A DNA stretch of 64,000 bases from an uncultured Candidatus Binatia bacterium (GTDB lineage Bacteria; Desulfobacterota; Binatia; UBA9968; CAXXLF01). The position numbers were made by a program, and so were the translations under genes. A model generated the notes under the pieces. That model did no database searches, was not told the DNA's origin, and saw nothing but the letters and a program-made list of their open reading frames with translations. The stretch is taken from NCBI GenBank assembly GCA_965218425.1, contig OZ244621.1, positions 864,001 to 928,000 on the forward strand. The letters are read 5' to 3'. Within the stretch, counting starts at the first letter, position 1; every line of letters begins with the position of its first letter. Of the stretch, positions 15,041-18,749 are shown piece by piece.

Positions 15041-15497
15041 ATAAGTATGATAATCATACTTTTGCAGAATATCCAAGCGTTGTATCGACATGATCTCATG
15101 CACGGGAAGTAATTCCGCAAACGTAAAATTGACGATTGTTATACCGTGGCGGGAGTATGATGAGGGTCCAGGATTGTAGCATCACGCCTGCGGAACAAGA
15201 ATCATAGCACACGGCGCAAAGGGCAAAGCGCCAATAGCTATCAGCCATCATCTTTCAGCTCTCAGCTAGTTTCGACAACAAACTCAAGACACCAACCGCA
15301 GGTTCACGTAGACTAATGTAGACGATTATTTGTTCGCCGCAGCGGCGCAAAGCGACCGGAACACATAAATCGCATAGAGCATAACGCAACGCGCTCAGGA
15401 CTGAGTGTTGAGGACGAATATTGAGCCTGGGGTCGCATATGTAAATAAACCCCGGAATATTGCATCGGGAGGCTGAAACCACCATAATGTGCCCTAT

Positions 15498-16277
15498 ATG
15501 GAACTCGTTTGGCTCAAGGTCCCGCAATGGGAACAGAGAGAAGGATTCATTCATGGCTTTTTCGGCCGTAAGGGAGGTAAAAGCCTCGGGATCTATGCCA
15601 GTTTGAATCTCTCCGTGCGCGTCGGCGACGACATTCAGACCGTCAAGGACAACCTCTGTGATCTCAAGAAGGCGGTGGGACTTCATGACGAGAGGGTTGT
15701 GACCATGACCCAGATGCACAAAGACCATATCACTGAAGTTACGGATAAACGCACCAAAGACGCCGGCGCGGCGGATGGCATGATTACCGAACAAAAGGAA
15801 GTTTTTCTCGGGGTGCTCACGGCTGACTGCGTCCCCATCCTCATCTCCGTTCCCTCCCGCAGGTTAACTGCGGTGGTCCATGCAGGATGGCGCGGCACCT
15901 TAGCAGGCATCACACCCAAAATGGTTAATTACCTTCGGGAGCGATTCCAAGTGGCACCAGAGTCTGTGGAAGTGGCCCTGGGGCCGGCCATCGGTCCATG
16001 TTGTTACGAGGTTCAAGGCGATGTCACCGAACCCCTACTGGCAAAATGGAAGGGGCTGGCGGAGGCATCCCTCCATAAAAAGAGCGGCAGCTACTTTGCC
16101 GACTTGAAAAGCCTTAACGCCCTGCAATTCAAAGAGGCAGGGATACCACCGGACCAAGTATTTTCCATCGGCCCTTGCACCGCCTGCACCCCTGACGAAT
16201 TCTTTTCCTACCGCCGTGATGGCTATGGAGTCAAAGAAGACACTGGCCGCCAGCTCGGCTTTGCCGGTTGGCTTTGA
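15498..16277 (+). CDS. pgeF: Peptidoglycan editing factor / purine nucleoside phosphorylase PgeF (YfiH)
   Basis: SLNL, QMH, TADCVPIL, HAGWRG, GPAIGPCCYEV, CTAC..FFSYRR. Confidence 0.92.
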   Translation: MELVWLKVPQWEQREGFIHGFFGRKGGKSLGIYASLNLSVRVGDDIQTVKDNLCDLKKAVGLHDERVVTMTQMHKDHITEVTDKRTKDAGAADGMITEQKEVFLGVLTADCVPILISVPSRRLTAVVHAGWRGTLAGITPKMVNYLRERFQVAPESVEVALGPAIGPCCYEVQGDVTEPLLAKWKGLAEASLHKKSGSYFADLKSLNALQFKEAGIPPDQVFSIGPCTACTPDEFFSYRRDGYGVKEDTGRQLGFAGWL

Positions 16278-16580: not shown

Positions 16581-17432
16581 TCACTCCAGATCTTCCGTCA
16601 GGTCCCTGAGCACGATAATCTCCGGCCCTGCCTTGAGGGTTTCTTTGGATAGTCGGACTCCGTTTCCCTCCATGTTTCGCACCCGTGAAAAGTTCTGCGC
16701 GAATTGCTCTGCGTACCCCTCCCAACGGTAGTGATAAGGAATAACGATTTTGGGTTTCACCGAAGCGACGATCTTTAGCGCATCCTCGGTGGAAATCCGA
16801 TAACCTCCCTGTCCGAGGGGAACTAGAAGAACATCGATTTTACCCATCATTTTGACCTGCGTCTCGTTGAGCAAGTGACCCAAATCCCCAAGATGAGCAA
16901 CGAAAACTCCATCCATGGAGACCACAAAGACGGTATTCTTCCCTCGAAGCATGCCCATCTCGCTGTCATGGTAAGTGGGCAGCGTGAAAAATGAGACGTC
17001 GCGGATGGTCTTGTGCAAGCGGGTCCAGTTCCCATTTTCCATGCTGAGTCCGTGAAGTACGATGGGGTTCCCGCTTGCCATCCAGATAAAGCTGTGGTTT
17101 CCGCCGAAATGGCTCGTGGTCACCACGTGGGGCGAGATATCCATTGGCGGGCTTCCCCTGCCATGGGGATCCATCAGGACCTTCGTCCCGCGCGATGAGG
17201 TAAGATAAAATGCCGAATGACCCAACCACTGGATGGTCAAATTCCGCGGGCCAGATGCTGCCGGGACAACTCGAAAAGGCCAATGGCCAGCCACTTCTGA
17301 CTCGTGGCAAAAGGCACGGGCTAGCTGCGGCAGGAAAAGAACAAGAGCCGCAACAAAAAATAGACGGAAAACCCCTTTGCCCAGATAATGGGGTAAACTC
17401 TGTTTGCGATTTATGAACACGGCAACTCTCAA
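16581..17432 (-). CDS. Exported MBL-fold protein (lactamase_B_3-like)
   Basis: Signal peptide ending ARA; WLGHSAF, MDP, HLGDLGH, IPYHY; exact start uncertain. Confidence 0.75.
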   Translation of the reverse strand: MRVAVFINRKQSLPHYLGKGVFRLFFVAALVLFLPQLARAFCHESEVAGHWPFRVVPAASGPRNLTIQWLGHSAFYLTSSRGTKVLMDPHGRGSPPMDISPHVVTTSHFGGNHSFIWMASGNPIVLHGLSMENGNWTRLHKTIRDVSFFTLPTYHDSEMGMLRGKNTVFVVSMDGVFVAHLGDLGHLLNETQVKMMGKIDVLLVPLGQGGYRISTEDALKIVASVKPKIVIPYHYRWEGYAEQFAQNFSRVRNMEGNGVRLSKETLKAGPEIIVLRDLTEDLE

Positions 17433-17633: not shown

Positions 17634-17662
17634 TTGACATCCGAGGGCCTCTCCCGTAAACT
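17634..17662 (+). promoter_or_regulatory. Near-consensus sigma70 promoter
   Basis: TTGACA (17634-39)-17 bp-TAAACT (17657-62). Confidence 0.75.
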
Positions 17663-17693
17663 GGCCCCAGCAGAGAAAGGAGGTGGTCCAGCA

Positions 17694-17735
17694 ATGATAG
17701 ATAATTATTGTGACTGCGAGGTGCCTGAGACTTAG
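17694..17735 (+). CDS. Putative 13-aa peptide MIDNYCDCEVPET
   Basis: ATG directly after AGAAAGGAGGTGGTCCAGC; TAG at 17733-35. Confidence 0.4.
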   Translation: MIDNYCDCEVPET

Positions 17736-17811
17736 GCTCCTAGCCAGTAATCCTAAGTAACCGCTTTTGGGGTTTGTGGCTTTGGAGCCGGGAATTCCAA
17801 TCAGCACACCG

Positions 17812-17850
17812 GGCCCTGGCCGAACATAAGTTTGGCCAGGGCCTTTTTTT
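17812..17850 (+). terminator. Intrinsic terminator
   Basis: GGCCCTGGCCGAAC-ATAA-GTTTGGCCAGGGCC followed by T7. Confidence 0.9.
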
Positions 17851-17857
17851 GTCTATT

Positions 17858-18478
17858 CTATTTAGGCGAGACTTTTTTTGGGGGAATACCCAATCGTTCA
17901 AGTACAAATCCTGCAGCGTTGCGCACTCTTGAATCGGTATCGTCCGAATTGGTTCTCATCAAAACGCTTAACACGTCGCCACTTAATTGAGCATGTTTGC
18001 TCAAGGCTGTCACGGCCGCCACTCGCACCAGTGGATCTGTATCCCCAAGGCACCGAAGTTGTAAGGACGGATCTCCAACACCCAGATCGCGTAGACAGTA
18101 TACCGCCATCCTTCTCTGAACCGGGCTCTCAGAATTTAAGAGATTGCAGACGAGGGTGGGGATTCTCGGGTCATTGTTCCCCAGGCGGATGAGGAGTTGC
18201 AGAGTAGCCCACCGGATATCGGGGTCTTCGCTCCCAAGAGCCGCCGTGAGAACCTCCAGGCATGAGGAGGAAGGTTGTGTGAGCTGGCCAAGCGTATAGG
18301 CCACGGGCCAGCGTTTTTTCGACGAAACCTCCTGGAAGAGTTTGCTTAAAGACTCTCGAATTTCGGGCCTTTCATTTCCAAGGGCAACCAGAGAGTCTAC
18401 GGCCCTTCGAACCACAGCCCGATCCGAGTGAGCCAGGGACTCCATGAGGGAGGCAATATCTCTATCCGCTGGATTCAC
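17858..18478 (-). CDS. HEAT/PBS-lyase repeat protein
   Basis: Repeated units such as LGSEDPDIRWAT, LGDTDPLVRVAAV, DTDSRVRNAA. Confidence 0.8.
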   Translation of the reverse strand: MNPADRDIASLMESLAHSDRAVVRRAVDSLVALGNERPEIRESLSKLFQEVSSKKRWPVAYTLGQLTQPSSSCLEVLTAALGSEDPDIRWATLQLLIRLGNNDPRIPTLVCNLLNSESPVQRRMAVYCLRDLGVGDPSLQLRCLGDTDPLVRVAAVTALSKHAQLSGDVLSVLMRTNSDDTDSRVRNAAGFVLERLGIPPKKVSPK

Positions 18479-18489
18479 AGACCCATGGC

Positions 18490-18749
18490 CTACGTTGGAA
18501 GGGGCAGGTGAACCATGAAGGTGGAGCCTTCCCCCTCTTCGCTCTCGGCCCTAACGGTCCCCTTGTGGGGCTCAGGATGGTCCTGACGATGAAAAGCTCC
18601 AGGCCGGTACCTTCGATCCGTTCCGATAAGCCGCCGGAACCGGGAGAACAGATGGGAAAAAGGATGAGAAACGAGGTGGCAATGGCGATCATCCACTGAA
18701 GGATAATCACCGCATACTGCTTACCTGCTATCAGACGTTCAATGGCCAT
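18490..18749 (-). pseudogene. Collapsed membrane sensor histidine kinase relic
   Basis: First TM helix (IILQWMIAIATSFLILF) fused to a HATPase tail EGTGLELFIV.../HKGTVRAESEEGEGSTFMVHLP. Confidence 0.65.

Follow-up and report, generated by a model that had tools for sequence, protein, structure and literature searches.

A stretch of 64,000 nucleotides (nt) from an uncultured Candidatus Binatia bacterium (GTDB lineage Bacteria; Desulfobacterota; Binatia; UBA9968; CAXXLF01; GenBank assembly GCA_965218425.1, contig OZ244621.1, positions 864,001 to 928,000), here called the window, carries a small gene on its plus strand whose predicted RNA begins with a 19-nt complement of the 16S rRNA 3' end and encodes a peptide of only 13 residues. 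We consider this element more likely than not to be an rre-type mini-mRNA from a clade that is partly covered by the Rfam family Ms_IGR-5, and suggest that it would tether the 30S ribosomal subunit and couple its own remodelling and turnover to translation. The mechanism is modelled on the known mini-mRNA rreB and on the geometry of the element. RNAs of this kind have already been described in other bacteria, and the element lies outside the taxa of both described families. It is not a product of chance, as its wide occurrence in relatives of the same order, its conserved synteny and the copies in other phyla demonstrate.

The element and the 16S tail

The element is composed of the following features, for which R1 denotes a covariance model of the host's order that is described below together with the fold.

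17634-17662, plus strand: sigma-70-type promoter with TTGACA at 17634-17639, a 17-nt spacer and TAAACT at 17657-17662 (promoter scan 10/12).
17669-17850, plus strand: predicted transcript of about 180 nt, a mini-mRNA or small RNA (sRNA) (span of the full-length alignment to Rfam RF02471; R1 match at 17664-17851, 109.4 bits).
17670-17673, plus strand: 5' strand of helix A, GCAG, at the extreme 5' end of the RNA (partner 17714-17717).
17674-17692, plus strand: extended Shine-Dalgarno (SD) sequence AGAAAGGAGGTGGTCCAGC, a 19-nt complement of the 16S 3' end (18 Watson-Crick pairs and one G:U).
17694-17735, plus strand: 13-codon open reading frame (ORF) MIDNYCDCEVPET with ATG at 17694 and stop TAG at 17733-17735 (read from the sequence).
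17714-17717, plus strand: 3' strand of helix A, CUGC, in the region of the second Cys codon (covariation).
17718-17728, plus strand: second SD-like motif, GAGGUG(C)CUGA, in the Glu-Val-Pro codons; it supplies the 5' strand of helix B (fold, covariation).
17735-17789, plus strand: variable hairpin domain P2, beginning at the last base of the stop codon (minimum free energy (MFE) fold).
17792-17798, plus strand: junction GAAUUCC, conserved as GAAUYCC in the family (opposite AAUuCC in the RF02471 consensus).
17801-17810, plus strand: 3' strand of helix B, UCAGCACACC, family consensus CAGUCACC, resembling 16S ...AUCACC (fold, covariation).
17811-17850, plus strand: intrinsic terminator, a stem at 17811-17844 with 15 pairs and a 4-nt loop, followed by a U-tract (terminator prediction).

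Promoter, complement, ORF, the hairpin starting in the stop codon and terminator are each present as described in a first-pass annotation of this DNA. Its proposal of a self-contained small RNA gene is supported as well, in that a promoter and a terminator of its own are both predicted and both conserved in the order; the transcription start is placed from the -10 box alone. The segment 17668-17850 folds with an MFE of -81.3 kcal/mol compared to -55.7 +/- 4.1 in shuffled sequences (z = -6.2), and none of 200 shuffles reaches its value.

The genome's single 16S gene ends ...GCGGCTGGATCACCTCCTTTCT, so the 19-mer pairs with the organism's own rRNA at 18 Watson-Crick positions and one G:U, in line with the complementarity first proposed against a typical bacterial 16S end. 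Of the 19 nucleotides, 16 lie opposite the single-stranded tail and the final AGC opposite the 3' strand of helix 45. The further idea that the pairing extends into helix 45 has to be cut back: these three nucleotides alone reach it, and in the family the positions from +13 after AGGAGG are not conserved. Within the 4.46-Mb genome the 17-mer AAAGGAGGTGRTCCAGC occurs, with at most one mismatch, at two sites, the element and the 16S gene. Leaving the rRNA gene aside, the element holds the longest complement of the 16S tail among about 15,000 GGAGG sites; the next longest measure 15 nt (one site) and 14 nt (six sites). The 15-nt complement, GGAGGTGGTCCAGTC at G000:C1:4288308 (minus strand, outside the window), has the same G at the wobble position, and it and the six 14-nt sites might be strong SD sequences of ordinary genes or mark further mini-ORFs. 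A 16S pseudogene fragment on the minus strand was also considered and ruled out, given that the match to 16S is limited to its last 19 nt and the element is conserved as a unit.

Conservation in the order and beyond

A DNA search with the core of the element (17668-17739) found it in 37 of 40 relatives from three families of the same order (E <= 1.5e-7) and did not find it in the other three (G011, G025, G029). Across 20 aligned loci of the order, the promoter TTGAC[AT]-N17/18-TAnnnT is present in every one, and CAGCAGRGAAAGGAGGTGGTC is invariant, including the G of the G:U pair, whereas the letters after GGTC (CCAGC in the window) differ. The hairpin is variable, the ...CCCCTCAGTCCACC segment is conserved and the terminator is kept. 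The element is single-copy in its own genome.

More distant relatives were collected by a pattern scan of one genome per species for AGGAGGTGGTC followed by 15 to 45 nt of any sequence and GAGGTGNCTG. It returned at least 119 loci, mostly from Actinomycetota; the other titles among the matches listed name Acidobacteriota, Planctomycetota, Latescibacterota, Eisenbacteria, Leptospira, Syntrophobacter and Heliobacteriaceae. Altogether, related copies span at least eight phyla. One close relative, L063, has a record title that names Syntrophobacter.

The family allows the limits of the complement to be read from those positions that the search pattern leaves free (n = 132, numbered relative to AGGAGG). 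Upstream, position -1 is A in 114 members and G in 18, position -2 A in 110 and G in 22, position -3 G in 131 and position -4 a purine in 120. Downstream, C occupies position +11 in 104 members and a purine position +12 in 127, and from +13 onward there is no base preference. Changes opposite U residues of the tail are from A to G or from G to A only, so that pairing with ...GGAUCACCUCCUUUCU is preserved. The complement conserved across the family corresponds exactly to the single-stranded 16S tail, an observation that appears new in the literature searched.

Relation to Ms_IGR-5, CC2171 and rre mini-mRNAs

At gathering thresholds Rfam gives no match in the whole window. Below threshold, Ms_IGR-5 (RF02471) aligns over its full model, positions 1-184 of 184, to 17669-17850 without truncation; the score of 27.3 bits lies under the gathering score of 45, with E between 8.6e-5 and 1.4e-4 locally. 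Searched against the whole genome, the model has this as its only match (E 4.5e-4). The first-pass annotation had not recognised a known family; this full-length match, and the fit to the published rre type discussed below, now argue otherwise. Both RNAs share the same order of motifs: a 5' helix strand, GRAAGGAGGUGGUC, GAC, GAGGUG-CUG, stop, a variable hairpin, AAUUCC, CAG-CACC and a terminator. They differ in that Ms_IGR-5 is an actinobacterial sRNA while the host of the window is not an actinobacterium, in that the P2 domain and the peptide of the window are unlike those of Ms_IGR-5, and in the Rfam consensus structure, which pairs the SD with GCUGCC and lacks the covarying helices A and B.

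The relationship is also seen from the other side. R1, built from sequences of the order alone, recovers true members of RF02471, among them L076 with 39.3 bits (175.8 bits with RF02471 itself). Three actinobacterial pattern loci that were checked are RF02471 members above threshold (175.8, 105.1 and 85 bits), whereas two others checked, one acidobacterial and one from Leptospira, went undetected with this model. Of 121 actinomycetotal genomes sampled evenly, 36 match it at E <= 0.001 and 17 exceed the cut-off (32 and 16 of 117 without the four unpublished genomes G445, G462, G492 and G564), so that many likely Ms_IGR-5 members score below threshold. Sub-threshold matches in Caulobacter and Thermus (E <= 1) disappeared at E <= 0.01 and were not used.

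According to excerpts of the respective reports, members of Ms_IGR-5 are transcribed in Streptomyces lividans and S. avermitilis (PMC8079986, PMC8780764) and ribosome-protected in Mycobacterium abscessus and M. smegmatis (PMC4974804). A function for the family is given in none of these excerpts. In literature searches, ncRv names near Rv0812 had no match, and GGTGGTCC matched only papers in which the word belongs to a 16S primer.

A second comparison is offered by the rre genes. Hahn et al. (PMC5711450; excerpts of the article are the basis for all that is said of it here) described rreB as a 165-nt mRNA with a 17-nt perfect complement of the 16S 3' end that includes the first base of its GTG start. 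It encodes a small ORF (sORF) of 14 amino acids, the sORFs of rreB and rreR having 14 or 18. The RNA co-sediments with 30S and not 50S subunits, is weakly translated, and is stabilised when its start codon is changed to a stop. Synthetic RreB and RreR are unstructured. The genes are reported in Alphaproteobacteria only and their function is called elusive; the article contains no mention of CC2171, Rfam or Actinobacteria.

The predicted RNA of the window shares several traits with rreB and rreR. Its predicted size is similar (about 165-190 nt in all), and an RpoD-type promoter and a terminator of its own are predicted in the window; its complement, within the common range of 16 to 19 nt, begins a few nucleotides from the 5' end and covers the whole single-stranded 16S tail; and where the complement ends, or right beside it, a tiny sORF begins, of 13 amino acids in the window. 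As in rreB, predicted pairing takes in the 3' part of the complement and leaves its 5' part free, and the order relatives L015, L018, L019 and L021 use a GTG start codon that shares its first base with the complement. Genomic context is in both cases conserved within clades only. In contrast, the complement of rreB and rreR is perfect whereas the order of the window has an invariant G that gives a G:U pair, and the peptides share no similarity. In rreB-like loci the SD faces UCACCUC inside the ORF (aligned by eye), while in the window a second SD-like motif, GAGGUGG, faces ...UCACC on the 3' side. The 30S binding, weak translation and start-codon-dependent decay of rreB are experimental results, and would extend to the window by analogy.

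Measured against the published definition of rre genes, the window departs from the uninterrupted complementarity of at least 16 nt, showing 12 Watson-Crick pairs, one G:U and 6 Watson-Crick pairs; with G:U allowed, it covers the entire 16-nt single-stranded tail and 3 nt more. The tiny sORF at or directly after the complement is there, with an ATG 1 nt downstream and 13 codons. Occurrence is not alphaproteobacterial, the relatives of the clade being found in Actinomycetota, Acidobacteriota and other phyla. The suggestion of a 30S-binding RNA, made at first sight of the sequence, thereby gains a precedent in rreB, and for the window itself binding would follow by analogy.

The Rfam family CC2171 (RF01867), a Caulobacter and alphaproteobacterial sRNA of unknown function, was included in the comparison. 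Its consensus opens at the 5' end with the same giant SD, cAAcaAucGAAAGGAGGUGAUCCAG, and we regard it as an RNA of the same kind as that of the window and of another family. It is expressed in M. extorquens according to a Northern blot in the excerpted report (10.1101/2022.01.24.477521). A metagenome scan for the perfect rre hallmark, GAAAGGAGGTGATCCAGTG, yielded at least 120 loci, 20 of which were compared with Rfam. Four of these (L181, L182, L188, L189) are CC2171 members above threshold with 76.7-101.3 bits, and three rreB-like loci that adjoin a tRNA reach 39-44 bits, below threshold. L203, with the perfect hallmark, is an RF02471 member above threshold (53.5 bits), L180 scoring 30.8 bits, and L203, L185 and L180 have the same helices and the same ...EV... 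ORF ending as the clade of the window. As hallmark loci score as CC2171 or as RF02471, CC2171 is, on this sequence comparison, the alphaproteobacterial rre RNA, and the Ms_IGR-5 clade includes members with the full rre hallmark.

Among the metagenome contigs, L191, L183 and L198 are rreB-like mini-mRNAs with the ORF VS[YFC]xKRCHLAGIAR* (asterisk, stop), located about 120-170 nt from a tRNA gene on the opposite strand, which matches the tRNA-Gly neighbour of rreB in the excerpts (PMC5711450). Their ORFs contain UCACCUC, an anti-SD look-alike that faces the giant SD.

A conserved frame around a variable peptide

The ORF is kept across the family with a precision that its peptide does not share. 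A canonical start codon (ATG, GTG or TTG) stands in frame in 121 of 132 members, most of the others using CTG, and canonical starts lying 4-14 nt after GGAGG number 121, 9 and 17 in frames 0, 1 and 2. The stop follows exactly five codons after GAG in 127 of 132. In the order, the ORF has 12-14 codons in the 20-locus alignment, indels are in frame (+3, +3, -3) and changes between TGC and TGT are synonymous. CTG starts account for 13 of 128 ORFs; seven loci (L037, L047, L068, L111, L112, L129, L143) have an in-frame CTG without ATG, GTG or TTG at the expected place, and the record titles of L037, L047 and L068 name Acidimicrobiales or Acidimicrobiia. The stop is TAG in 114 of 132 members. This preference led us to consider a sensor specific for release factor 1, an idea weakened by the 7 members with TGA and 11 with TAA.

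Such conservation bears on the possibility that the RNA is a purely non-coding 30S sponge, or a chaperone or maturation guide of the 16S 3' end, with an incidental ORF. We judge this unlikely. It would account well for a complement that covers the whole single-stranded tail and varies only in ways that preserve pairing, for the co-sedimentation of rreB with 30S and not 50S subunits (PMC5711450), and for the 1-nt spacer to the AUG, as a full duplex and placement of the start in the P site look incompatible. An incidental ORF, however, is hard to reconcile with the in-frame starts and the fixed stop, both kept even where the frame shifts, and with the ribosome footprints on family members in the excerpts of PMC4974804. 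Overexpression of rreB leaves growth unslowed, and ribosomes were judged to be in large excess over the RNA (PMC5711450); an rRNA-processing or assembly gene is missing among the conserved neighbours.

The peptide itself shows little sign of being selected for. ORF lengths in the family range from 10 to 20 codons, and the peptides differ in sequence and charge. The residue before Glu is Arg in 65, Cys in 32, Ser in 11, Gly in 10 and Leu in 6 of 128 ORFs, varying because its codon is part of the covarying helix A. Codons 2-4 show neither an excess of third-position changes nor 3-periodicity across the family. In five members, which come from Latescibacterota, Eisenbacteria and Planctomycetota, the start stands 7 nt after GGAGG and a TAG 7-9 nt after GGUGG; they read the GGUGGCUG motif in other frames and end in ...GGGCS* or ...QRWLLQ*. 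The tiny metal-binding CxC peptide of the first-pass annotation is not borne out either: in the order only the second Cys is constant, and in the family the residue before Glu is varied and set by the RNA helix. The peptide words TREVAVR and DCEVAET had no match in the literature searched.

A frame that is kept around a peptide that is not indicates selection on ribosome engagement and on the RNA sequence rather than on a protein product, a pattern that appears new in the literature searched. The opposite view, in which the 13-residue peptide is the functional product and acts with a partner, possibly via Cys, the RNA features serving to tune its synthesis, strikes us as decidedly unlikely. 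Its E-V-A codons are exactly the helix B strand and the preceding residue tracks helix A, the variable codons lack periodicity, and the same nucleotides are read in other frames in three phyla; the variation of the family peptides in sequence, charge and length, and the lack of structure in synthetic RreB and RreR (PMC5711450), point the same way. What this view explains is an ORF kept everywhere, the constant C-terminus and in-frame indels of the order, and the conservation of RreB and RreR within their clades (PMC5711450).

A covarying fold that includes the ORF end

R1 was built from 14 sequences of the order with a hand-written structure. A search of 100 sources gave 85 matches, which were aligned as A3. 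In this alignment 89.8% of the cells are paired compared to 63.0% in shuffles, and the covariation score is 0.416 compared to 0.105 (none of 500 shuffles reaches it) and to 0.076 at most when partners are slid by 1-3 columns; most of the sequences were chosen by a pattern that fixes part of helix B.

Two long-range helices stand out. In helix A, the first four nucleotides of the RNA, just 5' of the SD, pair with four nucleotides just 5' of GAGGUG. Double changes occur in all four pairs, 96.5% of the cells are paired in the 85 sequences, and variants such as CACG/CGUG, CACC/GGUG and CGCU/AGCG replace the GCAG/CUGC of the window. Helix B joins GGUGGCUG, in the Glu-Val-Ala codons, to CAGUCACC directly upstream of the terminator, and the predicted pairing of the SD-like motif with this distal 3' partner has a median probability of 0.75 over the 85 members. 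In the family alignment, P2 shows double changes in nine of nine pairs and the terminator stem covaries in ten of ten. The 3' half of the ORF would lie inside helices A and B, and this covarying fold appears new in the literature searched.

Conservation of the junction and of the 3' strand across phyla could also be taken to mark a trans-acting base-pairing sRNA, with GAAUYCC and/or the CAGUCACC strand as its seed and translation of the mini-ORF gating seed exposure. The gene stands alone with neighbours that differ between phyla, as is typical of trans-acting RNAs, and in the predicted ensemble of some members the 3' segment can swap partners. Helix B, however, already accounts for the conserved 3' strand, and the excerpted literature holds no evidence of a chaperone or target, no target search having been made here; we regard this reading as quite improbable.

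Genomic context

Both neighbours lie on the minus strand, as first annotated: a metallo-beta-lactamase (MBL)-fold gene at 16581-17432 and a HEAT-repeat gene at 17858-18478. Across the order the element sits between a Cu-oxidase_4 (YfiH-like) gene and the HEAT-repeat gene. In the window the MBL-fold gene (Lactamase_B_3) is placed between the Cu-oxidase_4 gene (15489-16277, plus strand) and the element, likewise in L005 of the same genus; in most other order relatives Cu-oxidase_4 directly precedes the element, and the MBL-fold gene looks like a lineage-specific insertion. In L022 and L023, which belong to the order's family f3, the element is turned the other way relative to its neighbours, with the HEAT-repeat gene upstream on the same strand and Cu-oxidase_4 convergent downstream; here the element seems to have been inverted in place. 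Two further minus-strand ORFs, 18462-18749 (95 amino acids) and 15255-15794 (179 amino acids), have no Pfam match, and the latter is probably not a gene, since it overlaps the Cu-oxidase_4 gene on the other strand.

Neighbours vary in 27 actinomycetotal loci, with a GCV_T-like gene in seven and Aminotran_4, LmeA, MDMPI_N, DNA ligase and others elsewhere. Neither these loci nor those of the order have a translation, rRNA, rRNA-processing or assembly gene as a conserved neighbour. With different neighbours in different phyla, and no translation or rRNA gene among them, context gives no hint of the output. A leader peptide with an attenuator controlling a downstream gene, which the short ORF, the alternative pairings and the terminator resemble, is highly implausible: the downstream gene is convergent in the window and in most relatives rather than co-oriented, the neighbourhood is not shared between phyla, and the gene, which has a strong terminator, is conserved as a whole.

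Plasmids deserve a separate remark. On a 224-kb plasmid of Tsukamurella, the weak match H1 (NZ_LR134464.1:94642-94690) to the element's 5' half (76.9% identity over 51 nt, E = 7) coincides with no annotated feature and may be a family member carried by a plasmid. A plasmid-borne rre gene is noted for Azospirillum in the excerpts of Hahn et al. (PMC5711450), and a plasmid search for it gave three weak and irrelevant matches.

Proposed working

We propose that the free 5' part of the complement would seed very tight binding of the 30S subunit through the 16S tail. A full duplex of 16-19 bp, ending 1 nt before the AUG, would hold the subunit as a tether instead of positioning the start codon in the P site, and initiation would be inefficient because the duplex leaves almost no spacer to the start codon. 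For productive initiation, the 3' part of the duplex would have to open. The last five codons and the stop fall within helix A, helix B and the P2 base, so a translating ribosome would have to melt all three and would terminate at the P2 base. In this way the binding of ribosomes and a brief round of translation would set the conformation and lifetime of the RNA, which fits the excerpted measurements on rreB, and what matters as a product would be the interaction of RNA and ribosome and not the peptide. Possible outputs are the sensing of free 30S subunits or translation capacity, or the exposure of a base-pairing or protein-binding segment. Helix B resembles an internal SD:anti-SD duplex, in that GGUGG faces ...UCACC with the same G:U pair, and we speculate that the 16S tail and the 3' strand compete for pairing.

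Several points weigh against this reading. The C-terminal DCEV[APT]ET is constant within the order, which leaves room for a local role of the peptide there, and in the excerpts of Hahn et al. (PMC5711450) overexpression of rreB has no effect on growth and the small proteins are seen as conserved within clades. The likeness to CC2171 is confined to the SD stretch, the one part of RF01867 that aligns (18.1 bits, gathering score 75); the SD likeness of both CC2171 and rreB to the window is imposed by the 16S sequence. Single-sequence thermodynamics rarely yields helix A (median probability 0.01), and the MFE fold of the window pairs 17712-17717 with GUGGUC at 17683-17688 (GUGGUC:GACUGC), in competition with it. 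The alignment A3 was fitted to its own model R1 and contains kin that are not independent, and most of the cross-phylum sequences were collected by a pattern that fixes AGGAGGTGGTC and GAGGTGNCTG, whose invariance there is no evidence. In the phylum of the window the element is nearly confined to one order: it was found by the pattern in 2 of 401 genomes and by R1, a narrow model with which 17 candidates per genome were scored, in 3 of 151, figures that refer to the genomes searched. Finally, the one RNA data set, a metatranscriptome, gave a 91-nt contig piece (17616-17706) from a relative; other runs, of unrecorded library type and containing the stretch in near-identical form, may be the window's own source, and these data are uninformative on transcription.

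Beyond the tethered mini-mRNA that we favour for the window, a more general view can be put forward tentatively, as a possibility that we would at present rather doubt than assert. Ms_IGR-5-like RNAs, CC2171 and rreB/rreR might all be versions of one widespread device, which captures the 30S subunit via the entire free 16S tail and carries an internal SD:anti-SD copy. Binding and a short obligatory translation would flip the RNA between two states. The cell would use this to read out free or competent 30S subunits, and hence the state of their 16S 3' tail, and the signal would be passed on by RNA stability or by an exposed segment.

Significance

The rre mini-mRNAs have been a puzzle for ten years, as RNAs that bind 30S subunits more tightly than any normal mRNA and are barely translated. 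Here, the same design is found outside Alphaproteobacteria, and two orphan Rfam families, Ms_IGR-5 and CC2171, are tied to the rre type. The clade of the window adds a covarying fold with the ORF end buried in it. The G:U position, the two helices A and B, the start codon and the stop codon are all sites where the proposed working lends itself to mutation. The connection to Ms_IGR-5 also opens the way to tractable hosts such as Streptomyces and M. smegmatis, in which members are reported, in the excerpts cited above, to be transcribed or ribosome-protected.

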